A stretch of 64,000 nt of DNA, taken from assembly GCA_965215565.1 (NCBI GenBank), contig CBDCDZ010000004.1, forward strand, positions 3,936,001 to 4,000,000. The letters are read 5' to 3'. A program made the translations under genes and the position numbers. The DNA is from Trueperaceae bacterium. GTDB lineage: Bacteria > Deinococcota > Deinococci > Deinococcales > Trueperaceae. This document shows positions 16,754-63,225 of the stretch, piece by piece (the first letter of the stretch is position 1; every line of letters starts with the position of its first letter). The notes under the pieces are model-generated. The model was given only the letters and a program-made list of their open reading frames with translations. It was not told the DNA's origin and did not search any database.

Positions 16754-17022
16754 CGTTAATAGCTCGAGTCCTTCCGTTCATCAACGCCGAGATAACCAGG
16801 TGGTGAGCTTCGGAGGAACGCCGCGATTTTGTTCAGCCGCACGGTTATACGAGGTTGCACGGCTTAGTTTGCAAAACTAAGCCGTGTATGTCACGGATGG
16901 GACGTAAACTCGGCGCGACCCGCTAGCTAAAGCTGAGCCGCTGAAAAGCTCTATGCACGAAGTAAAGTCGCAAGCTCCCGCTGGGCGAAGCAACGCCCTC
17001 AGTTGGGGTAAGTAAACTGTGC

Positions 17023-17133
17023 TAGCAGTTCCAAAACATACTGAGACGGATAAGCGCAGATATCATTTCGGGATGTGCGTGCTAAACGATGTTCTCCGTA
17101 GTGGGAGTGTTTCAGACCAGATGATACCTGCTA
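17023..17133 (+). mobile_element. 111-bp MITE-like element, copy 1
   Basis: TAGCAGTTCCAAAACATACTGAGACGGA...ACCAGATGATACCTGCTA; TAGCAG/CTGCTA inverted ends. Confidence 0.85.
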
Positions 17134-17232
17134 TGCAATTCCGTATTACGGCAACAAGAGGTCGAGCGACGTGAGCTTGCTACTCGAGCCTCTGTGTCTA
17201 GCAGGCGTTACTCAGCCTCGAGTCATGAGATA

Positions 17233-17267
17233 AAAGAGCGCACCGCGGGTCTCGCGGTGCGCTCTTT
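17233..17267. terminator. Strong hairpin terminator between convergent genes
   Basis: AAAGAGCGCACCGCG-ggtct-CGCGGTGCGCTCTTT. Confidence 0.8.
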
Positions 17268-17320
17268 CATCTTGGTGTGCTTTCGTCTCAGTTTACTCTG
17301 AGGCGGCTATTTCAACTCTT

Positions 17321-17431
17321 TAGCAGTTCCAAAACATACTGAGACGGATAAGCGCAGATATCATCTCAGAATGTACGTGCTGCACGATGTTCTCAAAAGT
17401 GAGCGTGTTTCAGACCAGATGATACCTGCTA
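17321..17431 (+). mobile_element. 111-bp MITE-like element, copy 2
   Basis: Same ends and length as 17023-17133. Confidence 0.85.
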
Positions 17432-17450
17432 TCTTGTTCTACAGAGTGTT

Positions 17451-20400
17451 TTACCGAGAGAGAAATTCGGGCGCGAGCGCGACGGATTCGGCGTTGTCGA
17501 CTTCAGCCGAGGCGGAAGGTCGGATGTTCCAGTCGCCCTCGCCGTAGTCCAACAGACCTGCAAACGCCAACACGCGGTCCTTCGTCTTCTCTGCGACGAA
17601 GAGGGTGTCGCCGTCAAAGGTGATATCAACTGGGTTACCCAGAGTCGTGTTAGAGCCGCGCACCCGCGCTACTGGCTCGGCGTTGCCGTCTGCGCTGCTC
17701 GCATCGGTCAGCACGTAGAGTTCGCCGTCCGCGTCGAAGTCGGGCTGGTCCGGGGTCGTCGCCGCGCCCACGTCGGCGAGGATGAGGAGGTCTTTGTCCG
17801 CTACGTGGACGACGCCGTGCAGGTTCGCCGAAACTTTGTTACCCGCTCTCGTCGGGGTGATTTCTCGGTCAGGACCGCCCGCGCCGTAGTCCGCCGTGTA
17901 ATCTTCATAGACGAGCGCGGTGCCGTCGGTGCCCGCCACGAAGAGCGTGTCGCTGGTAGGGTCATAGTCCACGTCCCAGACGCTGCGCGTGTCGCTGCCG
18001 AGGTTTGTAGTGGTGAAGCGCGGGGAAGCGTTGCCGCCCACTTGGGTACTGAACACCTTGATGTCCTTCGCGCCGAAGTCCGCAACGATAACGACGCCCA
18101 GCGAATCCACCACCTCTAGACCCTTCGGCGCAACTAGACCCGTGTTGTCGCCCGTGATGGTGCGGTCTCTCGAGGCGTCGAAGGTCCCGCCGTCCCGCTG
18201 CGTCGCCAAGCGGTTGACGACAGCGATACCTCCCATGCTCGGCGTCGCGCCGTCGTCGAAGGTAAGGTAGGCGTCGCCGTTGCCACTGAAGGTGATGTTT
18301 TCGGGGTTGACGGTTGCGCCCGCTGTGTCAAAGGTACTTTCCATGGTGGAGAGGTCGGGCTCCACGCTGACCACGAAATCGTCCCCCGACTCGGGCGTAT
18401 TGCTGACGGCGAAAAGGGCGTCTATGACGGTCGCCGTGTCGTCGATATCCGTCACGTCGGGGTTGCCTAGTGCGAAGTCAGCAGCCTCGGCGACGAGCGA
18501 TTCAGGCTTGGACTCGTCCACGGCTAAGTCAGGGGCAACGTCGCCGCTCGCGCCGTCAAAGACGTTGTCGAACACGAGGAATTTGTCGCCCGCTTTCTCC
18601 GCGATGCGTGCCTCGTCGCCATTCAAGATGAGGTCGACGGGATTGCCGAGCAGCGTGCTGGGACCGCGAAGGATGCGGACGGGCTGCGTCTCGCCGCGCG
18701 CTTCGCTGGCGTTTTCAAACACGTAGAGGCTGCCGTCCGAATCAAAGCCGTCTTGGTCCGAAGTGGTCGCCGCGCCGACGTCCGTCACGACGAGGGCGTC
18801 TCTTTCGGCGTCGTAGGCGACGCCGTGAAGGTTGTCCGAGAGCTTGTCGCCGTTTTCGTCCACCGGGGTGAGGACCGTGACCGGCCCGTCGGGACCGTAA
18901 CCGCTCGCCACGTAGTCCTCGAAAACGCAGACCGTGCCGTTAACGCGGGCGACGAACAGGCGGTCATTCGCCTCGTCGTAAGCGAGGTCCCAGGGTGCGA
19001 CGGTAAAACCCGTGACGGCGAGCGGCGCGACGTTGCCGCCCGCCGCGGTGCCGAAGACCTTGACGTTGCTGTCGCCGAAGTCCGCCACGATGAGGAGACC
19101 CGCTTTCTGCGCGATATCGAAGCCTTTAGGCGCGACGAGTCCCGTGCTGTCCCCTTTGATCTCGCGGTCGAGTGTGGCGTCGTATGCGCCGCCGTCAGGA
19201 CGGTTGCGAATCTGCGAGAGCACGCGGAGGCTGCTGCCGCTCTCCCTGTCGCCTGCGTGATAGAGGTTGCCTAGCGCGTCTAAGTCGACGCCTTCGTTGT
19301 TGCCAGATTGAAAGGTTTTGAGCCTCTGGAAAAGTGCGTTGAACGTATCCAGCTCGCCGACGTTGTCAGGACCGTTGTTCGAGCCGTAGATGTTGAGGTC
19401 GAAGTCGGAGTTAAAGCCGCCCCCGGGCTCGGGGCTCGGATTGGGGTTTTGGTCCGGGACGAAGTCTTCGGGCGCTGCCACGAGTGACTCGGGCTTCGAC
19501 TCGGGCTTGACCAGGTCCGGCATGACCTCGCCGTCCGGCGCGTCAGGCGCGAAGAAGTCGTCGAATACGAGCAAGACGTCGTTCGCCTTTTCGGTGATGC
19601 GCACTTCGTCGTAGCCGTTAAAGATGACGTCCACCGGGTTGCCCAGGAGCGTCCAGCGCCCTCTCACGACGCGCTCCGGGTCAGCGTTGCCGTCCAAGGT
19701 GCTCGCGCCTAAAAAGGCGTAGATGCTGCCGTCGGTCTTGAAGCCGGGTTGCTCCGGGGTGGTGGCTGCGCCCACGTCGGTCACGACGAGCGTGTCCGAG
19801 CCTGAGTCGTACGCAATACCGTGCAGGTTGTCGGAGATTTTTTCACCGTCCCGGTAGGGGGTGATGGTGCGTGCGGGACCGTCCGCGCCGTAGTCCTCCA
19901 AGTAGCTGTCGAACACAGCAACCGTGCCGTCGGTGATCGCCGCGAAAAGGCGGTCCGTGTTCGGGTCATACGCGACGTCCCAGGCGGGCGTATCTAAAGT
20001 GGTGGTGGCGACGGGGGCGACGTTGCCATCTACCGAAGCGCCGAAAACCTTGAGAGAGCCGTCGCCGAAGTCAGCGACGATGAGGAGCCCGGCGTCCTCG
20101 GCTAGCTCGATCCCTTTGGGCGCGGCGAGCCCGGTGGCGTCGCCGCTGATTTCGCGGTCTATGTCGGGGTCAAAGGTGCTGGCGTTTTCGGGGCGGTCAT
20201 AGAGCTGCGAAACGACGCGGATACTAGGACCGTTCTCCCCGTCGCCTGCTTGGTAGACGTTGCCGGAGCTGTCCACCTCGACGCCTTCGTTGTTACCCGC
20301 GTTAAACGTGCTCTGAAGCGTAAAGGTTTCGTCGAAGGTGTCGATGAGCCCGGCGTTGCCCGGTCCATTGTTCGAAACGTAAACGGTTCTTTCATCAGGC

Positions 20401-25005: not shown

Positions 25006-25116
25006 TAGGAACGAACATAACCACTGAGCTTGAATCACACAGGGATCATCACTAAAAGTACGCGTTACGCGGTGTTCCTGAAGGTGAAATTGGCTCAAAC
25101 CAGATGATACCTGCTA
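25006..25116 (+). mobile_element. Degenerate 111-bp MITE-like copy
   Basis: Intact right end ACCAGATGATACCTGCTA, internal CAGGGATCATC, TAG exactly 111 bp upstream. Confidence 0.6.
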
Positions 25117-25132
25117 TCTTCAAAGGAGAACC

Positions 25133-27180: not shown

Positions 27181-28533
27181 ATGGCGATTAAAAACCCTAT
27201 GAAGATGATGGAGCTGATGAATAAGCTCGACGTGGATAAGGTTGCGAAACTCTCCGAAAAGGTTGACCTCAACAAGCTCATCGGCATGGTCTCCTCGATG
27301 GACGAAAAGACCCTTAACCGCATGATGAAGATGGCTGCGCCGAAAAAAGCGAGCGACTTACCTCCTGCCAACGGCGACTTCTACGACATGGCGTCCACCT
27401 TCACCGAGCGCCAACGCAGCATTCAGATGAAGCTCCGTCACTTCATGGAGCGTGAGGTCGAGCCCATCATCAACGACTACTGGCAGCGCGACGAGTTCCC
27501 CAAAGAACTCATTCCCAAGTTCCGCGAGTTGGACCTCATCAAAGAGATTTTTGACGAAAATGGTGAGCGTACACCCGACGCTTCGATGATCGAGGGCATC
27601 ACCACGATGGAGATGTCGCGCATCGACGTGTCTACCACTGTCTTTTTCGGCGTCCACGCCGGTCTCGCTATGTGCTCAATTCTGGTCGGCGGCTCCGAAG
27701 CGCAAAAGCGCAAGTGGCTCCCCAAGATGCGCGATATGGAGATCATCGGCGCGTTCGGTCTGACCGAGCCCGACGTCGGCTCCGCCGTCTCGCAAGGGAT
27801 GAAGACCACCTGCCGCCGCGAGGAGGACGAGTGGGTCCTAAACGGTGAAAAGTACTGGATCGGTAACTCGACGTTTAGCGACATCACGATTATTTGGGCA
27901 AGGGACGAGGACGACGGACAGGTCAAAGGCTTCATCGTCCGCAACGACACGCCCGGCTTCAGCGTGAAGAAAATCGAAGGTAAAATTGCCCTTCGCGCTG
28001 TCGAAAACGGCCACATCACCATGCAGAACTGCCGCGTTGCCGAGGAGGACCGCCTCCAGAACGCCAACTCGTTTCGCGCCACCGCTGATGTCTTACGCAT
28101 GACCCGCGCGGGCGTCGCCTGGCAAGGCGTCGGCTGCTCGATGGGTGCGTACGAAAAAGCGCACGCCTACGCGCAGAGCCGCACGCAGTTCGGTCGCCCG
28201 ATTGCCAACTATCAGCTCGTCCAAAACCTCCTGGTGCAGATGCTCGGCAACACCACCGCGCTGCAAACCATGTGCATACGGCTTTCGCAACTGCAAGACG
28301 AGGGTGAGATGACCGACGAGCAAGCCTCACTCGCCAAAGTCTTCTCCGCGAAGCGCTGCCGCGAATCCGTCGCCTTGGGCCGTGAAGCGTTCGGCGGCAA
28401 AGGGATATTGTTAGAGAACCACGTCGCCCGCTACTTCTGCGATACCGAAGCGATCTACTCGTATGAGGGAACGAATGAGATCAACACGCTCGTTGTTGGG
28501 CGTGCGGTGACGGGATTGAGCGCGTTTGTTTGA
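27181..28533 (+). CDS. Acyl-CoA dehydrogenase (glutaryl-CoA dehydrogenase/ACX4-like) with N-terminal helical extension
   Basis: [41 protein letters not shown]. Confidence 0.92.
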
Positions 28534-28604
28534 GCTTAGCTGTTAAAGTAACGTTGAGGACACTTAAAGTGTCCTCTTTTTTTAGGCATATTTTAAGGAG
28601 AGCG

Positions 28605-28781
28605 ATGAAATACAAACGTGTTTCGGTCAAGCTGAGCGGCGGCGCGGTAGCCGGGAAGCGAGAGTTCGGTTTTGATCACGAGAGTTTAGCGCATCTCGTC
28701 AATGAACTTCTATCTGTAGCGGAAGCGGGCGTGGCGCTAAGTGTTGTCATCGGCGGCGGCAACATCTTAGTCCACCCTTAA
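28605..28781 (+). pseudogene. pyrH: Truncated UMP kinase (N-terminal 58 aa only)
   Basis: AAGGAG RBS; MKYKRVSVKLSGGAVAG...VVIGGGNI then stop; no continuation seen. Confidence 0.8.
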
Positions 28782-31831: not shown

Positions 31832-32794
31832 TCAATATCCCCGCCTCTTATCCACCACATGCGTCAGCGCTTCCCCTCTCTCATACAGCCGCAAATTCTC
31901 CAAAAAAATCTTGAGCGCTCTTTCATCATAGTGGGGCGTATCCCCCGAGTAATGCGCTGTCACGATGACGTTCTCCATCTCCCAAAGCGGCGAGTCTTCC
32001 GGCAACGGCTCCTCTTCAAAGACATCTAAGCCTGCCCCGGCAATCTGTCCCTCTTTAAGCGCTCGGATGAGGTCAGCCTCGTTCACCGTGCCGCCGCGTC
32101 CGATATTGATGAGGTAACTTGAGTCTTTCATCAACCCGAACTCATCTGCCGACATCACATGCCGCGTCTCTTCGGTTAGAGGTACAGTCAGTATGACGAA
32201 ATCAGCGTCGGGTAAGAGGGTGCGGAGTTCGCCTCGAGCCACCATCCGCTCGACATATTCAACCTCTTTCGAGGGATCACGCCGCACTCCCCAAACGCGC
32301 ATCCCTAGCGCGGCGGCAAGTTTAGCCGTGCGTTCACCGATTGCGCCTACGCCGATGAGTAGCACCGTCTTACCTGCGAGTTCGATGACACTTCGCTCGT
32401 CCGCCTTACGCCACCTATGCTTCACTTGGTCACGCACCGCGCCCGGCAGACCTCTTGCGAACGCGAGCATGAACGCTAAGACGTGTTCACTAATCGGAAC
32501 TGCGTGAATACCCGAGACGTTCGTCAGGGTGAAAGGATGCTCGGCAGCGTCAGAATACTTGAGGAGCCAGTCCGCGCCCGCGCCCCACTGCTGAAACCAC
32601 TTGAGGTTCGGCGCTTTCGCTAAAAGGTCTCGAGGGAAAGATCCCGCCGCAACTTCAATGTCACCTAATAAAGAGGTGATTTCGTCTTTATCCCTCGAGC
32701 CGCGAACCTCTAGCTGCGGCGCAGCTCGGCGAATCTCGTCCCACTGCTCATTTGAAAAGTGGTCTTCGTTAAAACCGACAAGGAGGATACTCAT
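31832..32794 (-). CDS. D-2-hydroxyacid dehydrogenase
   Basis: IGVGAIG, INIGRG, GLDVFEEEPL, TAHYSG; start moved to ATG 32794. Confidence 0.92.
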   Translation of the reverse strand: MSILLVGFNEDHFSNEQWDEIRRAAPQLEVRGSRDKDEITSLLGDIEVAAGSFPRDLLAKAPNLKWFQQWGAGADWLLKYSDAAEHPFTLTNVSGIHAVPISEHVLAFMLAFARGLPGAVRDQVKHRWRKADERSVIELAGKTVLLIGVGAIGERTAKLAAALGMRVWGVRRDPSKEVEYVERMVARGELRTLLPDADFVILTVPLTEETRHVMSADEFGLMKDSSYLINIGRGGTVNEADLIRALKEGQIAGAGLDVFEEEPLPEDSPLWEMENVIVTAHYSGDTPHYDERALKIFLENLRLYERGEALTHVVDKRRGY

Positions 32795-32920: not shown

Positions 32921-33010
32921 GTGCAATCTCTTGACGAATAGCGTATACGGGTATATAATAAATCTTATAACCAGTTGAAAGAGACGCGCTCACAAATGAG
33001 CGCTTTTTTT
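32921..33010 (+). ncRNA. Promoter plus short terminated RNA cassette, copy A (candidate sRNA)
   Basis: TTGACG(32931)-N17-TATAAT(32954); hairpin GCGCTCA-caaa-TGAGCGC plus T7. Confidence 0.65.
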
Positions 33011-33029
33011 GTGGCTTATACAGGTGGGC

Positions 33030-33063
33030 AAAAAAGAAGCCGAGCAAGTCTCGGCTTCTTTTC
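33030..33063. terminator. Terminator of SRPBCC gene
   Basis: AAAAAGAAGCCGAG-caagt-CTCGGCTTCTTTTT. Confidence 0.8.
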
Positions 33064-33078
33064 ACATCAGTTTAATAT

Positions 33079-34059
33079 TTAGTTCTTCTTGCTGGTATCC
33101 CCCGACGCTTTAGGCGGCAGTGCGCCTTCTGGTTTTTTGACGAGTTCGTCTGTATCGGCGTAGCCTGTCGCTTCGCTGTTGGCGCGCCTAGCATTGAGAT
33201 TATCCCCCTCGGGTGTGGGGATGGCGTCACCGTCGGTATGGATGGGGTCTTTCTCGACGTTGTCCGAGCGTAGACCGCTGCTCGAGCCCGGTACGCCCAA
33301 AGACGGCGTCCCCTCTTCATGACCTAATATCGGGCTTCGGGATGTTTGGCTCTGAGACTTTGTGCTCGTAAGGCTACCCGCCGCGCCCCCAATCGTCCCT
33401 GACTCCATCTCGCGCTTGAACCGCGCCAGGTCGTCGCTGATCTGCTGCGCGGGCTCCTCGCCGAAAAGTTTGGCGACGGCTGCGCCGAGCTGTCCGCCGG
33501 GCGGATGGTAGGTCAGCGAAACGATGACTTCGGTGTGTTCGTTGTTTCTACCCGTTGGACTGAAGCGCACCGCGCCTTCGTTGGGCACGTCCGCGTTTTC
33601 CACGGAGCGCCACGCGATGAGTTCGTTCTGCCTGTCGTCGGTGATGACCGCGTCCCACTCGACACTCGTACCTAGTGGTCCATTCGCCACCCAGCGCGAA
33701 CGTTCGCCGCCGAGTTCACGCACGCGCTCCAGGTGCGTCATGATGCTACCTAAGTTCTCCAAATCGCGCCAGTATTTGTACAACTCGCTCGCCGACTTCT
33801 CCACCGTGGCGCTCTCACGGACCTGCACGCCGTTGATGCGACTGCGGTTGTCGTAAAAGCCGTCGTCTGTCTCGCCGTAAGCCGTGATACCCCGGTAGAT
33901 GAGGTAGCCGCCCGCTGCGGAGAAGAGCGAGCCCGCTACGAGAAAGGTCCAATCCGCGCTCTGACCCTTGCCGCTGGAATGGTACGACGCATTCTCTTCG
34001 ATGTCGCGGTTTTGAAAACTGTCATTCTGAAGATAGGTTTCCGAAGGTTTTCGTGTCAT
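33079..34059 (-). CDS. SRPBCC (polyketide cyclase/START-like) protein with N-terminal TM and disordered tail
   Basis: ELYKYWRDLENL...SRWVANGPLG..VEWDA...IAWRS...GAVRF...YHPPGG...EEPAQQI. Confidence 0.88.
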   Translation of the reverse strand: MTRKPSETYLQNDSFQNRDIEENASYHSSGKGQSADWTFLVAGSLFSAAGGYLIYRGITAYGETDDGFYDNRSRINGVQVRESATVEKSASELYKYWRDLENLGSIMTHLERVRELGGERSRWVANGPLGTSVEWDAVITDDRQNELIAWRSVENADVPNEGAVRFSPTGRNNEHTEVIVSLTYHPPGGQLGAAVAKLFGEEPAQQISDDLARFKREMESGTIGGAAGSLTSTKSQSQTSRSPILGHEEGTPSLGVPGSSSGLRSDNVEKDPIHTDGDAIPTPEGDNLNARRANSEATGYADTDELVKKPEGALPPKASGDTSKKN

Positions 34060-34316
34060 TGTTGCCTCCTATATGCTGAAGTGTCCTATTTTGCGCTACT
34101 ACGGACGTGCAAGCGCCCTGTTAAGTTTTACAAAGTTCTGAACGCAGAGCGCAGTGCGCTGTCTATACCCCACATGGTAGGTGTCTCGCCCGCAACCCTT
34201 TACGCCTCATCTCACAATTGACCTTCATCATTGGGCCTCACAGTTACATTTTCGGAAAGTTTGAAGGTAGAAAACGAACCTCTCGCAGGTGCGTTCGTTC
34301 GTATGAACGAACTCGA

Positions 34317-34416
34317 GTGCAACCTCTTGACGAATAGCGCATACGGGTGTACACTTAAATTATATACGCGCTGAGGACGTTGCAGGAAACTGCGAAGGGT
34401 CCCCGGCGATTTTTTT
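34317..34416 (+). ncRNA. Promoter plus short terminated RNA cassette, copy B
   Basis: TTGACG(34327)-N17-TACACT(34350); long hairpin with GAAA loop plus T7. Confidence 0.6.
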
Positions 34417-34475
34417 GTTCCCTACAGTCTGAGGCTCGAGTCCAAGCTGCCGTCCACGTGCGGTAAGATGGAGCC

Positions 34476-35066
34476 ATGGCGCTTCCCAGGCTACAACCCG
34501 AATACGAACCTCGCGCGTTCACCTACCGCGAACTGCTGGCGATGGAGCGGGCAGGGATTTTAGGCGAGGACGAGCGCGTCGAACTTCTCCATGGGAGTAT
34601 CGTCCCTATGACTGTCAACCCACCCCACGCGCTAGTCGTGCGTGAACTCACCGAAACGCTATCTCTGGCTTTTCTAAATGTCGCCAAAATTGATGTGCAG
34701 AACCCTCTGCGGCTTTCAACTGACTTAGATGACCGCCAACTGCTCGTGCCTGACCTGATGCTTTTAGCGCGGCGCGACTACGAGGACCACCCGCAGCCCG
34801 AAGACGTTTACTTGCTGATCGAGGTTTCGGACACCACGCTGCTCAAAGACCGCAAGGTGAAGCTGCCTCTTTACGCCGCCGCAGGTGTGCAAGAGGTCTG
34901 GCTCTTCAACCTCGCAGAGAAGCGTTTGGAAGTCTACGCTGAGCCGCAGGGCGAGATATACGGAGCAGTGAGCAGCCTCGAGCTAAGTGGGCCTACCGCG
35001 CCCCGACGTTTTCCTGATCAGGCTCGAGTATGGCTGAGCGAAGCTATTGTAGCAAAGCTGCCCTGA
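34476..35066 (+). CDS. Uma2-family (DUF820) PD-(D/E)XK endonuclease-like protein
   Basis: RVELLHG, PDL, LLIEVSDTTL..DR..KLPLYAAAGVQEVW; TAAGAT-N6-ATG. Confidence 0.9.
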   Translation: MALPRLQPEYEPRAFTYRELLAMERAGILGEDERVELLHGSIVPMTVNPPHALVVRELTETLSLAFLNVAKIDVQNPLRLSTDLDDRQLLVPDLMLLARRDYEDHPQPEDVYLLIEVSDTTLLKDRKVKLPLYAAAGVQEVWLFNLAEKRLEVYAEPQGEIYGAVSSLELSGPTAPRRFPDQARVWLSEAIVAKLP

Positions 35067-35297
35067 TAACGGGGAATGGGCTGAACAAAACCGAACGAAA
35101 GGTGTTCTTTCGAGTTTAGAGCGGTTTATGCACACCTTTTTTCGAATTCCGGTGCAATCTGAAACCCGGATGAAGTTCGCTTAGCGCCGTTCAGTACGGC
35201 AAACCTGACAGCTAATCTAAAAATGGATAGTTTCCTCGTGCCAAACAGCGCTTTTTGTAAGTTTCAAGAAGCGTCATGCAGACTTTTGTCGGTTCCA

Positions 35298-35385
35298 GTG
35301 CAACCTCTTGACGAATAGCGCATACGGGTGTATAATTTCTTTTATCAATCAACAAAAAACCGCGCTCAGGACGAGCGTTTTTTTT
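35298..35385 (+). ncRNA. Promoter plus short terminated RNA cassette, copy C
   Basis: TTGACG(35308)-N17-TATAAT(35331); hairpin CGCTC-aggac-GAGCG plus T8. Confidence 0.65.
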
Positions 35386-36442
35386 ATTGCTCCTTTCGAG
35401 CTTTGCTCGTACTGAGTGGCGGCTGATTGTGACGCTTTGCGGCGCGGTCCGAGAGCGTCGTAAGGAGGGAGGGGGCCCAGCTCGAATGGACCTCCCGCCC
35501 CTGCTTCACGTCGTCGCCGTCCACAGGATTCAGGCCCGGCAACAGGCGGTTCGTTGTGCTGAGCAATTTCGCCGTGACCTCCGGTAAGAGGGCATTGGCG
35601 AGCACCGCGCCCCTCGCGGGAAGCGTGAGTATCTGCTGCGCCTTTCCTCGGCGGCACGCCTCGACGATCTTTCGCGCGGCTTGGGGTGCGCTCATGGTGA
35701 GAAGAGGGAGCGAGTCGCCCACGGCAAACCAGGCGAGTTCTTGGGCGTGCTGCCCTTTGAGGCGCACGTTGGGGTAGGAGCCTGTGCGCAGCAAGCCGGG
35801 GCAGACCGTCGTCACTTTGACGCCTGCTTGGGCGAGTTCGGCGCGGAGCCCTTCTGACAAGCCAACCAGCGCAAACTTGCTTACAGCGTAAGGGAGCAGG
35901 TGTGGCACGGCGACTTTACCGCCGATTGAAGAGATGTTGACGATGCGTCCCCCTGTGCGTCCCCCCGTACCTTTTCGTGTCCTTTCGAGATGTGGCAATG
36001 CGGCTAGAACCGTATAGAGTGCGCCCCATAAATGAACCTCGAGCGCATCTCTGAAGTCATCCTCTTGCATGTGCGCGAAGGGTCCCGCCTGGATGACCCC
36101 GGCGTTGTTGACCAGTACACCGAGTGAACCGAAATGCGCTACGGTCTCCTTCACAGCATTTTCAACCTCTTGACGTTCACGAACATCGCAAGGGAGTGTG
36201 AGGACTTGTGTTCCCTTTGCGCGAAGCTCCCCAGCGGCTCTCTCCAACTCGTTCTCGTCTCGAGCTAGCAGCGCCAAGTGTGCGCCCTCTTCCGCAAAAA
36301 CTCTCGCCAACGCCAACCCGAGCCCGCGTGACCCACCCGTGATGAGCACAACTTTGTTCTCGAAGTCATAAGCGGGACGCTTGAGGGCGTAGGTCAGTGC
36401 ACCTAGCCCGAGTGCACTTAAGAGAAAGCCCATTTTCTTCAT
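35384..36442 (-). CDS. SDR-family oxidoreductase
   Basis: ITGGSRGLG, NNAG, ISSIGG, YAVSK; start moved to ATG 36442 with AGGATGAG RBS. Confidence 0.9.
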   Translation of the reverse strand: MKKMGFLLSALGLGALTYALKRPAYDFENKVVLITGGSRGLGLALARVFAEEGAHLALLARDENELERAAGELRAKGTQVLTLPCDVRERQEVENAVKETVAHFGSLGVLVNNAGVIQAGPFAHMQEDDFRDALEVHLWGALYTVLAALPHLERTRKGTGGRTGGRIVNISSIGGKVAVPHLLPYAVSKFALVGLSEGLRAELAQAGVKVTTVCPGLLRTGSYPNVRLKGQHAQELAWFAVGDSLPLLTMSAPQAARKIVEACRRGKAQQILTLPARGAVLANALLPEVTAKLLSTTNRLLPGLNPVDGDDVKQGREVHSSWAPSLLTTLSDRAAKRHNQPPLSTSKARKEQ

Positions 36443-36450
36443 CTCATCCT

Positions 36451-36960
36451 CTATTCTCTCGCCCTGCGCCACAGCGTTATGCCCAAAAAGACGAGCACTA
36501 GTCCTACGGCGAAAAACCCAAAATCCCACGCCAACTCGTTCGGTCCTGGCTTGATGTGGTGCAGCCCTAAGAGGCGGTGGTCTACGATTTCGTCGAACAC
36601 GTGGAAGCTGCCGAAGCCGACGAGAACCGCGCCCAAGAGACGCTGACGCGAGAGCGGTACGCCCGCGCGCAAGCCGACGCGCCATAAGAGAACAATACCG
36701 ACAATTGTAAACCCGTATGCGCCGAGGTGGAACACGCCGTCTGCGAGCGTGTTCCACCTGAGCCCCGCGAGCGTCTGGGCGGTGCGCCAATTCGAAACCA
36801 TGTGATGCCACTGCAAGACTTGGTGCAGGACAATTCCGTCGAAGAAGCCGCTGAGCCCGAAGCCTAGAACCATGCCCGCGCGGAAAAGACCTCTTTCCGT
36901 GCTCTGCTTTTTCCCCCGCACTACGCGGACCTTCTCGTCTCGCTGATTCTGCGCGTCCAC
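36451..36960 (-). CDS. DUF2243-like membrane protein
   Basis: GFFDGIVLHQVLQWHHM, DGVFH, DHRLLGLHHI. Confidence 0.85.
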   Translation of the reverse strand: MDAQNQRDEKVRVVRGKKQSTERGLFRAGMVLGFGLSGFFDGIVLHQVLQWHHMVSNWRTAQTLAGLRWNTLADGVFHLGAYGFTIVGIVLLWRVGLRAGVPLSRQRLLGAVLVGFGSFHVFDEIVDHRLLGLHHIKPGPNELAWDFGFFAVGLVLVFLGITLWRRARE

Positions 36961-38129
36961 TACGGTTGCAGCACCACCTTTACGCAGCTATCCTCTTTAT
37001 GTTTGAAAATATCGTAGCCGTGCGGCGCGTCGTCCAGGCTCATGTGGTGGGTGATGATCCTCGAGGGGTCTAAAGCCCCATCTACGATCTTCTCCGTCAG
37101 CGTCTCTAAGTAGCGGTGGACGTGCGTCTGCCCCATCTTAAAGGTGAGCCCTTTGTTGAAGGCTGCGCCCAGCGGAATTTTATCTAGAATGCCGCCGTAC
37201 ACTCCGCCGAGCGAGACCGTGCCTCCTTTGCGGCAGATTTGGATGGCTTCGCGCAGAACGATGGGGCGTCCTGTTTGGAGCATCACTGCCTGCTTCGCCT
37301 TATCGAACACATCTAAGACGCCCGCGCCGTGCGCTTCCATACCGACTGCGTCGATGCACGCGTCCGGTCCGCGCCCCGCCGTCATCTCCCGTAAGGTTTC
37401 GATGACGTCTTTCTCTTCATAGTTGATAACTTCTGCGCCGCCGAAGGTCTTCGCCATCGCCAGACGCTCCTCGAGGCGGTCGATCGCAATCACGCGCTCC
37501 GCGCCGAGCAAGTAGGCGCTCTTAATCGCGAAGAGCCCCACCGGACCGCAGCCCCACACCGCGACGGTGTCGCCGCCTTGAATGTTACAGTTTTCCGCCG
37601 CCTGGTAGCCCGTCGGCAAGATGTCGGTCAAGAAAAGCACCTGGTCATCCGTGAGGCTGTCGGGCACCTTGTACGGACCCACGTCCGCGAAGGGCACGCG
37701 CACGTACTCCGCTTGCCCGCCCGCGTAGCCGCCCATGAGGTGCGAGTAGCCGAATATCCCGGCGGGCGCATGACCGAACATGGTTTCTGCCAAAACGGTG
37801 CTCGGGTTCGAGTTGTCGCATAGAGAGTAGAGGTCGTTGCGGCAGAAGTAGCAGTCGCCGCACGCGATAGGGAAGGGGACGACGACGCGGTCTCCTACGG
37901 AGAGGTTCTTGACCTCCGCGCCCACCTCGACGACTTCACCCATGAACTCGTGCCCTAAGATATCCCCTTTTTGCATCGTCGGGATGAACCCGTCGTAAAG
38001 GTGCAAGTCGGAGCCGCAAATGGCGGTGGACGTGACCTTGATGATGGCGTCGCGCGGATTGAGGAGTTCCGGGTCAGGAACCTGCTCGACGCGGACGTCG
38101 TTCGAACCGTACCAGCAAAGTGCTTTCAT
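36960..38129 (-). CDS. Zinc-dependent alcohol/formaldehyde dehydrogenase (YbdR-like MDR)
   Basis: ICGSDLH, GHEFMG, CxxCxxC...[16 protein letters not shown]. Confidence 0.93.
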
Positions 38130-38310
38130 GATGCCCCCCTATAAAGTTGTTGGAAATTAAATCCGTAAGCTCGAGATAATTCCAGTAAGCTTTGTGCCTC
38201 GAGTCCTAACTATTGTGAAAGTTAAGAACGCTCGAGCCTCAACCTCTTACCTGTTGCGAGTCTAAAAAAGAAGAGGGGCGCACCTTTTGAGGTGCGCCCC
38301 ATCGGTCCCG

Positions 38311-39066
38311 CTAGTTTCCGCTTGGCTGACCCTGCGTCGTCGCGGTGACACCCGTTTCCATGCGCTGCTTGAAGCGGCGCAAGTCGTCGCTGAGCTGCTG
38401 TGAGGGCTCCTCACCGAAGAGCTTGGCGACGGCTGCGCCGAGCTGACCGCCCGGCGGGTGGTAGGTCAGGTTGACGCGCACTTCGGTGCCGCGTCCGCCC
38501 GGCGCTTCGGCGAAGGTCACGCTGCCTTCGTTCTGCACGTCGGCGTCCTCGACGGCTTTCCAGGCGATGAGCTGATTCTCGATATCTTGAGTGACTTCGG
38601 CGTCCCATTCGACGCTCAAGCCGACTGGTCCTTTCGCCACCCAGTGCGAGCGCGTGTCGGTCTTCTCCGTGACCGACTCCAGATGGCTCATGATGTCGGA
38701 GAGGTTGCTGAGGTGACGCCAGTAGTGATACAGCTCCGAAGCGCTTTTGTTGATGGTAACGCTCTCGCGCACGTGCTGGGTTTTGCCCTGGTTGTTATTG
38801 CTGCGGTTTTGCCCGTAGCTGCTGGTGTTACGGCTGCTTGAGCCCCCTTGCTTCGCCACGCCGCGGTAGATGAGGTAGCCCCCAACACCCAACAGGACGG
38901 TACCGGCGATAGCGGCGGCTATGCCCGCGCCTGCGTCCTCCTTACTACCTCCGTCGTTATAGTGCCCCGTCTGGTAGTTGCTTGCCCCATAGTTGTCCGA
39001 TCCGTAGTTGTCCGACTGATAACGTCCGTACTCGTCTCTTCTATCGTTCATTTTCCTATCGTCCAT
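38311..39066 (-). CDS. SRPBCC protein, paralogue of 33079-34059
   Basis: Shared GYLIYRG, VRES, YHPPGGQLGAAVAKLFGEEP; AAGGGGG RBS before ATG 39066. Confidence 0.88.
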   Translation of the reverse strand: MDDRKMNDRRDEYGRYQSDNYGSDNYGASNYQTGHYNDGGSKEDAGAGIAAAIAGTVLLGVGGYLIYRGVAKQGGSSSRNTSSYGQNRSNNNQGKTQHVRESVTINKSASELYHYWRHLSNLSDIMSHLESVTEKTDTRSHWVAKGPVGLSVEWDAEVTQDIENQLIAWKAVEDADVQNEGSVTFAEAPGGRGTEVRVNLTYHPPGGQLGAAVAKLFGEEPSQQLSDDLRRFKQRMETGVTATTQGQPSGN

Positions 39067-39261
39067 CTTCTTACCCCCTTGAAATGTATGTAGTGACTCT
39101 CTCGGATTAGAGAGCCTGGACAGCATTATGGTAGGCGGCTGCGGATTGCCGCGCTTAGCCTTACCTTACAGTTTTACCCCGTCTCCTTAGGGCAGAAGAA
39201 AGAAAGCGCCCTCAGTAGGGCGCTCCAAACCTGTTGTACGCGCGTGGTTTCGGAAGTTGCG

Positions 39262-39834
39262 CTAAGGCTGCATAATGACGCCACACGCGACACGGCTGCC
39301 GCTGTCGCCGCCGGGGTCCGTGATGTAATCATCCGCGTCTCCATGAATGATCAACGCGCTGCCGTCGCTGTCAAAAAGCGTACGCTCGCCGTCCACCGTA
39401 ACGAGCGCTGTCGTCACCACGTAGTCCACGGTGCCGTTCTCGCTCACCATGAGGTTGGGCAAATCGCCCGCGTGAGGTCCCTCTGGGTTGAGCAGTCCGT
39501 GCTGCGCGCCCGCCGGGTTATAGTGTCCGCCCGCGCTTTCAAAGTCAGGTGCGCTGCATTCGCCCACCTCGTGAATGTGAACGCCGTGCTCGCCCGGCGC
39601 GAGCCCCGAGCCCTCCGAGAGACCGACTTGAACGGTGACAAAACCTGAGTCATCCATGCCCGTCGTGAAGTTCGCGTCGCCGATGACGTTGCCGTCTGCG
39701 TCCATAATTTCCGCCGTCGCCACTAAGTTCGCACTCTCGGAAGGGGACACGCCGCCCTCTGCGCCGCCCGTATCCTGCGCGTGAACGAGACCGAGCGTCA
39801 GCGTGACCGTTAAAAAAGCTATGAGTTTAGGCAT
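39262..39834 (-). CDS. sodC: Cu/Zn superoxide dismutase, secreted
   Basis: Signal peptide; HGVHIHE, GGHYNP, HG...HAGDLPN, IIH, RVACGVI. Confidence 0.92.
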   Translation of the reverse strand: MPKLIAFLTVTLTLGLVHAQDTGGAEGGVSPSESANLVATAEIMDADGNVIGDANFTTGMDDSGFVTVQVGLSEGSGLAPGEHGVHIHEVGECSAPDFESAGGHYNPAGAQHGLLNPEGPHAGDLPNLMVSENGTVDYVVTTALVTVDGERTLFDSDGSALIIHGDADDYITDPGGDSGSRVACGVIMQP

Positions 39835-40165
39835 AAATGCTCTCCAATCGCTAGGACCTTATCCTACCGGGACGAAATACGTCTTGTTGACAGTGCACCT
39901 CACAATGTTTCGTTTCGTCACCCCTGTATAAAACGGCTCCTCGGCGCTTTCGTAGTGGTCTCGAGCGAGGTTTGGAGGTGTTCTTGACGGTGTGGTCTGC
40001 GCCAGAGAAGAGGTCGGGTGCAACCTGAGACTCGGACACAACTCGTTTAGCTCCGTTCAGCATGGTGAAACTAGCGGCGAACCTCAAGATAGCCAGTTTT
40101 CTTGTCCTCAACAGTATTCTCCAAGAACCTCGAAGAGCGTTATGCAGACTTTCGTCTAGGTTTGA

Positions 40166-40267
40166 GTGCAACCTCTTGACGAATAACGTATACGGGTGTA
40201 TAATGCTTTTTATCAATCAGTAAGAAGCCGCGCCCCCAAGGATTGTTTATGGGCGAGCGCTTTTTTT
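40166..40267 (+). ncRNA. Promoter plus short terminated RNA cassette, copy D
   Basis: TTGACG(40176)-N17-TATAAT(40199); GC-rich hairpin ending GAGCGC plus T7. Confidence 0.65.
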
Positions 40268-40382: not shown

Positions 40383-40553
40383 ATGAACGAAGACCAGCGC
40401 AGAGAGTACGACGCTCTAATTCGCGGCATTATGGACCAAGCCGAAGAGATGAAAAACCCGGAGGACGACGAGGAGATGCTCTTTAGTAGAGTGAGTGACC
40501 TCTCGAGCAAGGTGGACGAGCTGCGGGACTTGCTAGGGACGATATACAGTTAA
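40383..40553 (+). CDS. Small acidic helical protein (56 aa), below ORF-track cutoff
   Basis: GGAGAGGGG RBS; MNEDQRREYDALIRGIMDQAEEMKNPEDDEEMLFSRVSDLSSKVDELRDLLGTIYS. Confidence 0.65.
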   Translation: MNEDQRREYDALIRGIMDQAEEMKNPEDDEEMLFSRVSDLSSKVDELRDLLGTIYS

Positions 40554-40729
40554 TAGCAGGTATCATCTGGTCAGCTACGCCCTCGCCAAAAAGAACATCG
40601 TTTCCTTCGGAAAACTTCGTCTGCTTCGCAGCTTTCAGAAATTAGCACGCACTTGATTGTGATGAAGTTCCGTTACAGCAAAGCTGTGAAATCTGCGGAG
40701 AAGTGGTGCAACGATAAATGGAACTGCTA
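40554..40729 (-). mobile_element. MITE-like copy (reverse) with internal insertions, 176 bp
   Basis: Starts TAGCAGGTATCATCTGGT, ends TGGAACTGCTA. Confidence 0.7.
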
Positions 40730-40921
40730 TAAAACAGAGGTTGAGGGCGTGCGCCCGACTCGGGTACACGCCTTTTAGGTTGCATCGGCGTTCGATTTCA
40801 AGAGGTACGCCGGAAACCCTCACGTTACCTAAAGTTTGCATCCTTTCCCCTCGCTTCTCCGTTCAGCACGGTAAGTCTCAGCTTCGAGAAGTATGAAACA
40901 TCAACAGAATCTAAACAGAAC

Positions 40922-48504: not shown

Positions 48505-48742
48505 AAACCCTCCTTATAAGGCTAGTGTAACGTGCACTCTAGCAGAAAAAAAGGGCCGACCTCATACTGAAGATGTCGATGTTTGTGGAGTGTGCTATCC
48601 AAAGCTTCGGAGCCGCCTGGGGCAATGAAGTGTGCGTCGTTGATACTACGGCGATACCTTGTTACGTTAAGCGTTGCTTTCGTGCGAATTCCGGTTGATT
48701 CGCCCTCATGCGCGCGTCAATCCGAGTGGAGTTCGTGTCACT

Positions 48743-48897
48743 TAGCAGTTCCAAGACATACTGAGACGGATGAGCGCAGGTATCATCATCGAATGTGCGT
48801 GCTAGTTAGGCACTTTTCGCAAAGCGAAACGTCGTTTCATCTAGTGAGCGTGTTGCTTCGCACAACTTCGTACACTCAAACCAGATAATACCTGCTA
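48743..48897 (+). mobile_element. MITE-like copy with internal insertions, 155 bp
   Basis: TAGCAGTTCCAAGACATACTGAGACGGA...ACCAGATAATACCTGCTA. Confidence 0.8.
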
Positions 48898-48919
48898 ACT
48901 CAACCTCTCGGGAGGCGTC

Positions 48920-58227: not shown

Positions 58228-58262
58228 TTCGCTAACAAACGTTCGTTATTTGTAGGTTCATC

Positions 58263-58373
58263 TAGCAGTTCCAAAACATACTGAGACGGATGAGCGCAGG
58301 TATCATCCCTTAAAGTGCGTGCTAGACATTGTTTTGTAAAGTGAGAGTGTCTCTGACCAGATGATACCTGCTA
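58263..58373 (+). mobile_element. 111-bp MITE-like copy
   Basis: TAGCAGTTCCAAAACATACTGAGACGGATGAGCGCAGGTATCATC...ACCAGATGATACCTGCTA. Confidence 0.85.
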
Positions 58374-58681
58374 ATCCTATGAAGAGGTGTGTAGCGCTGT
58401 CAAGACTTTGCACTGATAGAGCCACCTACGAAAGTTGCATGAATGTTTTGGATTACAGTTCGGAAGCGTTCCCCTAAGTCTCATCCTGATCGGATTTTAC
58501 ACGGAACCCCTTGTTCATCACATGGAACCGGCGCAAGACGTACCCGTCGGCACTCGCCCCGAACCCACTACCTGAGCGTTTTGCTAAGCTTCTCGTTCAA
58601 CCTCTACCGATGTGTAAATTTAGGGGTTGCTAACCCCTTCATGACTCTGTTAAACTACTTGTCGCTCTAAAGAGCGCGTAT

Positions 58682-62978: not shown

Positions 62979-63059
62979 AGCGCAGGTACCATCTTTGAAC
63001 GTGCGTACTAAGCGATTTTCTCTCCTAGTGCGAGCGTTTCTGACCAGATGATACCTGCT
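62979..63059 (+). mobile_element. Short MITE-like copy lacking the left ~30 bp
   Basis: AGCGCAGGTACCATC...ACCAGATGATACCTGCT. Confidence 0.75.
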
Positions 63060-63063
63060 TGCG

Positions 63064-63140
<77 letters not shown>

Positions 63141-63146
63141 ATGTGC

Positions 63147-63225
63147 AGCAGGTATCATCTGGTTTACTACACGCTCAGCCGAGAAAACACTAACTAACGT
63201 GCGCATTTGAGAATGATATCTGCGT
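63147..63225 (-). mobile_element. Short MITE-like copy (reverse)
   Basis: AGCAGGTATCATCTGGT...ATGATATCTGCG. Confidence 0.75.

Follow-up and report, generated by a model that had tools for sequence, protein, structure and literature searches.

Among the closest described relatives of the element reported here are the promoter-early stem-loop (PeSL) cassettes of T4-type phages, in which a sigma-70 promoter is joined to a stem-loop and recombination shuffles the genes that the cassettes bracket (PMC2839356). A 64,000-nucleotide stretch of a Trueperaceae genome (contig CBDCDZ010000004.1, positions 3,936,001 to 4,000,000, here called the window) contains four copies, designated A to D, of a unit that is similarly short, repeated and intergenic, with a consensus sigma-70 promoter and a terminator-type stem-loop. 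The PeSL promoter drives the downstream gene via a Shine-Dalgarno sequence, and the stem-loop lies at or before the start, where it stops upstream transcripts; in the unit, by contrast, the hairpin follows +1 and ends the unit's own transcript, orientation toward neighbouring genes is even, the distribution is chromosomal and phylum-wide, and two conserved boxes are present.

Promoters of the lambda PR'-tR' type, served by Q, and those served by AlpA in Pseudomonas combine a strong promoter with a conserved element between the -35 and -10 and an early terminator; unlike these, the unit has no consistent downstream operon, though a gated one is plausible for rtcB and the pseudouridine synthase gene in thermophiles but not elsewhere; no pause element was seen by eye, and no candidate antiterminator was identified, no search aimed at Q-like proteins having been made. 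The parS site is a 16-bp palindrome bound by ParB, without a promoter. The unit resembles parS-type sites in being short, multicopy (1-24), intergenic, orientation-free, origin-proximal (clearly in Deinococcus-type genomes, weakly in the window's family) and found chiefly on the main chromosome, but it consists of direct repeats, promoter hexamers and a terminator, with no 16-bp palindrome. The cer site of plasmid ColE1, with its promoter Pcer and transcript Rcd, is likewise prone to recombination and joins an ArgR-type site to a promoter and a short non-coding RNA, but it belongs to a plasmid and has a full ArgR site along with binding sites for XerC and XerD (PMC4393325, PMC2831885), whereas the unit has half-sites only and a predicted RNA of about 29 nt. 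Identity as a cer, dif or pdif Xer site was rejected, the 28-30-bp core with inverted arms not being found in the alignment and column counts (the palindrome was judged by inspection); dif itself was rejected on the further ground that the unit is multicopy, origin-side and depleted near the terminus, versus the single terminus copy of dif. The SNR repeats of Deinococcus radiodurans, described as dispersed intergenic repeats of 60-215 bp that are mobile mosaics and are reported absent from D. geothermalis (PMC11276467, PMC1978522), share the dispersed intergenic habit and the phylum, but the unit is phylum-wide; this comparison is by description, and overlap with one SNR type is possible. No description of the unit was found in the published literature covered, the defining papers of the SNR repeats and Dsr RNAs lying outside that coverage; the motif was likewise not found in those supplementary files of PMC8217566 and PMC4007540 that were searched. 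The unit is apparently uncatalogued, although it may already be listed among the SNR repeats or Dsr RNAs. Against Rfam, the window gave only two tRNAs, and five loci representing four families gave no match to the unit at E<=1.

In the window, a 39-bp motif occurs on the plus strand at 32921, 34317, 35298 and 40166 with no mismatches (none expected from 100 shuffles), as a first-pass annotation of this DNA had reported. That annotation had also read each copy as a near-consensus sigma-70 promoter with a 17-bp spacer followed by a hairpin and U-run, and this holds: the -35 and -10 match the consensus at 11/12 (A), 9/12 (B), 11/12 (C) and 11/12 (D) positions, and all four copies fold as a hairpin before a U-run (z = -3.75, -3.60, -2.79 and -2.03, respectively). 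The promoter of copy A (32922..32959, +) comprises box 1 (32922-27), the -35 TTGACG (32931-36), box 2 (32942-47) and the -10 TATAAT (32954-59), and its predicted RNA (32967..33010, +) has an A-rich 5' end, a hairpin and U7 (-14.1 kcal/mol). By motif and promoter score, the other promoters lie at 34318..34355 (B, +, -35 at 34327, -10 TACACT at 34350), 35299..35336 (C, +, -35 at 35308, -10 at 35331) and 40167..40204 (D, +, -35 at 40176, -10 at 40199). Counted from a conserved +1 A, the predicted RNAs are 44 nt in A, 55 nt in B (34362..34416, +, with a long hairpin and U7), 42-43 nt in C (35344..35386, +) and 56-57 nt in D (40212..40267, +); the earlier estimate of 45-60 nt was about right. The hairpin of C is also a predicted minus-strand terminator adjoining the stop codon of an SDR gene. 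No open reading frame (ORF) common to A-D crosses them, in agreement with the first-pass annotation, and a relationship to type I toxin-antitoxin repeats (Sib/LDR) was rejected for this reason and for lack of room in the Thermus loci. A conserved antisense peptide (the minus strand reads IHPYALFVKRLH) was also rejected, since relatives do not preserve the frame and the -10 takes the variable form TAnnnT.

The count of four holds for the window, but the genome as a whole (G000, 4.49 Mb) contains exactly six by three methods, the additional ones being copy E at C4:2563175 (+) and copy F at C4:3534513 (-). All six pass a hairpin-plus-U test that is passed by 2/125 other TTGAC-N18-TAnnnT sites of the genome. 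Copy B is nearly a twin of E (91% over 139 bp), and F is a mosaic with the loop of D and a 5' end matching A. The region of E (C4:2563025-2563480; L001 8025-8480) consists of a miniature inverted-repeat transposable element (MITE), a B-like unit and scraps of a Uma2 gene. The four window cassettes are genuine, but they are no peculiarity of a stress gene cluster.

The unit occupies about 75 bp. In 174 aligned copies, pre-filtered for a T-run and with the search-pattern positions invariant by construction, the layout is box 1 (TGCATA), 3 nt, TTGAC, box 2, 6 nt, TAnnnT, 6-7 nt, start, hairpin and U-run, with box 2 a direct repeat exactly 20 bp past box 1. Both boxes are conserved in all five families. 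The earlier suggestion of a multicopy promoter-plus-tiny-RNA unit with a candidate protein site in or around the spacer is supported; the spacer palindrome CG(T/C)ATACG proposed for that site stands in the window's lineage, but what is kept phylum-wide is the pair of direct-repeat boxes 20 bp apart. Information content is about 1-2 bits per position in the boxes and -35, partly set by the search patterns, and below 1 bit around and past the start; the G, C and A of box 1 are 86-98% conserved though outside the exact-scan pattern, and the layout beyond the -10 likewise emerged unprompted. In one genus the -35 has drifted to TTGCTG while the boxes, -10 and terminator are retained. Many lineages have a third repeat between the boxes; no genome-wide enrichment of the 20-bp box pair was detected.

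The transcribed part is conserved in another manner. The start is ATCA in 99 and ATAA in 32 of the 174 copies, and the predicted RNA has a median length of 29 nt (5-95% range 27-46 nt, with up to about 80 nt tolerated), of which only 4-5 nt at the 5' end are unpaired in most copies of the phylum; in the window's genus 17-18 nt are unpaired, A-rich and able to pair with the U-tail like two-way terminators. These A-rich ends do not differ according to whether the downstream gene is convergent (p 0.28). Thermus copies are without AUCA and have a broken U-run. The stem covaries, with 80% of cells paired and 36 double changes (0/500 shuffles as high; 34-49% in slid registers), the register having been picked from the slide control of a preceding pair count. 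Stem sequences differ between families, and RNAalifold gave no consensus fold because the stems are out of register; the profile model R1 therefore scores sequence only. The RNA keeps its hairpin structure, not its sequence.

Tandem units 150-310 bp apart with non-coding spacers are found at L152, L175, L176, L208, L219, L227 and others, several of the spacers containing an inverted copy of box 1 and a short common word near the end. Reading the spacers as CRISPR-like or as conserved RNAs was rejected, as 12 of them share only short words.

The unit is spread across the Deinococcota. An exact scan of one genome per prokaryote species found 63 loci, 57 with Deinococcota titles (among them Trueperaceae, Meiothermus, Thermus and Deinococcales), 6 labelled 'uncultured bacterium' and none naming another phylum, with a pattern tuned to the window's family that diverged forms in other phyla could escape. 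In a scan of the phylum the unit was present in 184/326 genomes (a tally that takes in the unpublished genome G295), with no matches to reversed-pattern controls. A looser pattern found it in 61/105 genomes of family f2 and, among earlier negatives, in 58/80, with one control match; a sequence profile recognised it in 41/46 genomes of a set chosen to include the remaining negatives, and in one of the five profile-negative genomes the usual location is occupied by a decayed copy. Genomes of two thermophile families mostly have 1 copy, those of the window's family 1-9 and those of f2 up to 24 (f1 is taken to be Trueperaceae, f4 Thermaceae and f2 Deinococcus-type). A terminator is present in 67/80 metagenome matches examined. 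Two scans of viral contigs gave 0 and 2 exact matches, one of the two without a terminator, and phage and plasmid records gave one partial match to a Deinococcus plasmid and otherwise short chance matches, with no real phage match. The unit can occur on a plasmid-like replicon, as in L011 (locus L089 of a metagenome-assembled genome), where a copy neighbours the gene for a Rep3 plasmid initiator and precedes one for TerB. A lower-GC, gut-type contig family (L322, L334, L363, L367), matched by the search pattern by chance, has a palindrome directly before a gene for a 358-aa tyrosine recombinase, an arrangement like the difSL/xerS layout.

In 12 Deinococcus-type chromosomes, 54/127 copies lie within 10% of the replichore from dnaA (34/93 when counted by clusters, p 7e-12), 115 fall in the half nearer the origin and 6 in the quarter farthest from it, and 62/127 are co-directional with the replication fork. 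Six single-copy thermophiles have the unit at 0.01-0.29 of the replichore.

The unit is indifferent to the genes around it. By heuristic gene calls, the downstream gene is on the same strand in 91 cases and on the opposite strand in 81, of 176, which agrees with the earlier view that the units are not gene leaders, and the flanking proteins form 182 clusters of mixed function, unrelated across about 170 copies, so that the link to stress genes or Uma2 that had been drawn from the window is not supported. Lineages nevertheless have habitual addresses: in Thermus-type genomes the unit precedes rtcB, whose ribosome-binding site directly follows the U-run in all 8 clustered loci; in Meiothermus-type genomes a pseudouridine synthase gene directly follows the U-run in 8 loci; and in family f3 and one f5 genome the unit precedes gatB, which has its own -10 past the terminator. 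As different genes stand behind it in different lineages, the unit changes address yet is kept. Further same-strand neighbours are RlaP, an RNB-domain RNase, YchF and RIO1.

Transcription was observed at one locus of one relative. In a single RNA-seq run (X24, 51-nt reads, strand assignment deduced from neighbouring genes), 984 reads mapped to a tandem of three copies in G094; on the strand of the unit, depth is 6-27 across the upstream gene, rises to 143-189 past copy 1 (mismatched stem), and is 45-87 past copy 2 (intact stem, U5) and about 4 past copy 3 (intact stem, U6). At copies 1 and 2, read ends cluster 11-14 nt into the predicted RNA. The pattern fits active promoters with a leak set by terminator quality; reads of 51 nt cannot reveal the 27-nt RNA itself. 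Contigs of 31 nt over the predicted RNA in runs X13 and X5 were rejected as graph artefacts, with one mismatch and a length equal to the assembly word length.

The unit is also a landing place for an insertion sequence (IS), whose transposase is a 439-aa, IS4-like DDE protein (DDE_Tnp_1, E 5e-11) that falls below all curated cut-offs, the best-scoring NCBIfam IS4 model giving 52 bits where 115 are required. It is present in 22/326 genomes, and in 0/17 and 0/64 of the two thermophile (single-copy) families. In loci fetched by transposase alone, 17/24 scorable start-side IS ends have TTGAC 9-11 bp off, versus about 0.3% by chance (left out of the 24 are two ends abutting another IS end and two that are too short); the TTGAC is that of the unit in 12 of the 17 and lies elsewhere in 5, where the target duplications differ, and the remaining 7/24 are at other sites, two of them decayed units. 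Across loci L236-L265 (22 genomes) the IS lies upstream of a TTGAC -35 at a fixed distance with its transposase pointing away, and in L238, L244, L254 and L262 the TTGAC is unrelated to the unit. Bound RNA polymerase may guide the IS to its target. A -35-targeting IS that leaves the promoter intact would be a bacterial parallel to the retrotransposons aimed at tRNA-gene promoters. IS elements that target REP sequences also prefer a repeated intergenic target (PMC1525189), but the IS4-like element here lands at a fixed distance from the -35, at non-unit TTGAC too, with differing duplications.

The window's genome has no transposase of this kind but retains three remnants of 140-142 bp, each immediately preceding a copy (C, D or E) and flanked by box 1 as its duplicated target; those before C and D had been overlooked in the first-pass annotation. 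A 140-bp MITE remnant with terminal inverted repeats and 6-bp direct repeats (35153..35304, strand not assigned) ends in box 1 of C, and a 142-bp MITE remnant of the same IS with identical 6-bp direct repeats (40019..40172, strand not assigned) ends in box 1 of D; the two remnants enclose the C-to-D block in the manner of a composite transposon. Reading the unit itself as a MITE or IS end was rejected: the terminal repeats belong to the adjoining IS, which targets the unit. Similarity between copies is higher inside one genome than across genomes (0.74 vs 0.58; 0.66 vs 0.43), though the search patterns bias this comparison in part. In each of two genomes, three identical IS-plus-unit copies have different right flanks and the same mismatched duplication, which fits conversion rather than three insertions. 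In the same-genus genome G001, C alone is intact, whereas each of A, B, D, E and F has its two flanks apart; in G002 the site of copy E is empty. Long-range breaks number 3 in the 7.3 kb of the cluster versus 4 in a 40-kb control. In keeping with the alternative proposal of the first-pass annotation, boundary or recombination sites, the units sit at rearrangement breakpoints, but shuffling is best read as a side effect of the IS and of recombination between copies, not as a dedicated cassette-shuffling system, and the A-B-C-D cluster was likely built by such recombination or IS events.

ArgR is a conceivable, though on balance doubtful, binder of the boxes. From 23 regions upstream of argG and argR, with the unit left out, a palindrome was derived that proved to be the ARG box. 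Scored with it, the unit's boxes resemble real ArgR left half-sites, with medians of 5.9 and 7.2 bits versus -8.5 and -7.3 at 125 other promoter-like sites, and their period of 20 bp compares with 20-21 bp in argG promoters, of which 5/12 have two half-sites at that distance. The right halves overlap the -35 and the approach to the -10; the best whole-box cases reach 8-12 bits in two lineages, and in the TTGCTG genus box 1 rises to 5.6-8 bits. Promoters of the same grammar in lower-GC metagenome contigs were rejected as support for ArgR, as they lead to an integrase, an antitoxin-like gene and others, not to arginine genes.

As separate observations, arginine/polyamine and RNA-repair genes are a handful among 149 flank proteins scanned out of the 182 clusters, a post hoc grouping not counted as evidence, and in one thermophile (L142 6364-11336, a single case) genes upstream of the unit encode an M17 peptidase of the PepA family, an IS110 transposase and a filamentous-phage protein of the Zot family. 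PepA is the partner of ArgR at cer. Short Arg-rich leader ORFs (e.g. MVKLTSAFSRVRRR in this genome) are found in 9/12 argG leaders (L442-L453), which, beside ARG boxes, suggests arginine attenuation; for D. deserti, 14 leader peptides have been reported, argG not being mentioned in the main text (PMC4007540).

The reading put forward here, tentatively and at somewhat under an even chance, is that the unit is an origin-linked site at which RNA polymerase and a box-binding protein dock, ArgR being one possible such protein, and that the predicted RNA of 27-58 nt is a by-product; it is favoured because conservation sits in untranscribed DNA and because the map resembles that of chromosomal sites. 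A protein would bind the two boxes flanking the -35 on one helical face, and the terminator would confine a promoter that must remain able to fire. The unit may have a role in origin-region organisation or dosage sensing, as parS-type sites do. The bound complex could attract the IS, and breaks at the left edge of the unit might be repaired off other copies, giving flank swaps and eventually the A-B-C-D cluster.

Several points weigh against this docking-site reading. The genomes are kin, so that the p values are overstated; outside Deinococcus-type genomes the bias is weaker (5/27 within 10%, cluster p 0.07), and in the window's family it is weak, the four window copies lying at 0.59 of the replichore. 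A similar map would be expected from RNA-gene dosage or from local spread of an origin-near ancestor. The constant AUCA start and the tight length of 27-32 nt also fit a functional RNA, and the excess of breaks at the cluster is real but stands on a high background. The binding protein and the role are putative. For ArgR in particular, the right halves score -5.5 and -11.8 bits, whole boxes have medians of 0 and -4.7 bits versus 10-19 for most real ARG boxes, and more than 10,000 places in the genome beat the unit by tandem-box score; argR is present in 317/326 genomes, and because it is near-universal, co-loss of argR and the unit is uninformative, while one Thermus genome with decayed boxes retains argR.

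A functional RNA is the next most probable account after the docking site: an abundant 27-30-nt, 5'-triphosphate hairpin with a U-tail, repressor-controlled and protein-binding, that would act as an Rcd-like checkpoint signal, a nuclease decoy or a transcription sensor, with extra origin-near copies raising the dose in fast growers. The AUCA/AUAA start in 131/174 copies, the median of 29 nt, the covarying stem and the retention of at least one copy in 41/46 genomes despite a changing address all fit such an RNA, as does the precedent of ColE1 cer, which joins an ArgR site, a promoter and a protein-binding RNA (PMC4393325, PMC2831885). 6S RNA (RF00013), moreover, was not found in 5/5 Deinococcota genomes (G000, G034, G094, G191, G215) or in two named phylum controls. 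The stem sequence and 5' end, however, vary by family, and Thermus copies have neither AUCA nor an unbroken U-run; lengths up to about 80 nt are tolerated; and the RNA was not observed in reads whose 51-nt length could not show it. Base-pairing or guide RNAs with variable seeds, as the first-pass annotation had suggested, are very improbable: the 17-18-nt unpaired A-rich ends that would serve as seeds in the window's genus are absent from most copies in the phylum, where free ends are mostly 4-5 nt and stems family-specific, their longest genomic matches are 11-13 nt, equal to shuffles, and they pair with the U-tail as in two-way terminators.

It is unlikely that the unit is a selfish or PeSL-like shuffling cassette, or a mere IS landing pad, made uniform by gene conversion and without host function, single copies surviving only as gene promoters. 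The greater likeness of copies within genomes, the identical IS-plus-unit triplets on different flanks, the separation of the flanks of 5/6 copies in a same-genus genome and the absence of the IS from both single-copy families would all follow, but intact single copies persist in those IS-free families upstream of a gene with its own promoter, the boxes are conserved in all five families, and most copies have no accompanying recombinase or transposase. A switch of the lambda Q or AlpA type is more doubtful still. A box-bound factor would load onto polymerase and let it read through the terminator into genes such as rtcB or the pseudouridine synthase gene, copies facing nothing being shuffled leftovers; the ribosome-binding site of rtcB abuts the U-run in 8/8 Thermus-type loci, the pseudouridine synthase gene is placed likewise in 8 Meiothermus-type loci, further same-strand neighbours are those named above, and read-through exists in G094. 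Such a switch is hard to reconcile with downstream strands of 91:81, with terminator strength that is the same whichever the downstream orientation (p 0.5), with the separate -10 of gatB and with the lack, by eye, of a -10-like pause element after the start. A chromosomal counterpart of cer/Rcd is a similarly long shot: ArgR hexamers would bridge half-site pairs of two copies and gate the promoter, the tiny RNA or the firing itself would report replication and arginine state, and a transposon family homing to occupied -35 elements would exploit the units and drive much of the phylum's shuffling.

A phylum-wide, apparently uncatalogued non-coding unit points to a basic process in a group with two model organisms, and the loss of a predicted RNA of about 29 nt from standard libraries may explain why it was missed. 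Single-copy genomes permit a clean knock-out. The IS is of interest itself, since it appears to insert upstream of a sigma-70 -35 at a fixed distance and leave the promoter intact, and many rearrangement breakpoints coincide with the unit, in a group noted for its repair of double-strand breaks.

The genes between the window copies have the identities first annotated. To the left of A is a D-2-hydroxyacid dehydrogenase gene (31832..32794, -), which has a different right-hand neighbour in each of two same-genus genomes. The passengers are an SRPBCC (Polyketide_cyc) protein between A and B (33079..34059, -), a Uma2-family protein between B and C (34476..35066, +) and, from C to D, a block encoding an SDR, DUF2243, a Zn dehydrogenase, SRPBCC and SodC (35384..39834, -); A and C face convergent genes, as had been noted. 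To the right of D is a 56-aa ORF (40383..40553, +) with no Pfam or NCBIfam match, which is present in three relatives too.

A separate high-copy repeat family of about 110-170 bp, with a conserved end word and hundreds of genome-wide matches, was located by repeat comparison at window positions 17018-17440, 21030, 25023-25124, 40555-40730, 48738-48900, 50759, 58258-58381 and 62979-63189 (strand not given); it looks like a MITE/SNR type, unrelated to the promoter-terminator unit. An 83-aa ORF at 28530-28781, with no Pfam match at the default threshold, reads like the start of a UMP kinase gene and is probably a fragment. Three coding repeats of about 1 kb at 17920-20185, 66-71% identical, are probably a repeated-domain protein or paralogues.

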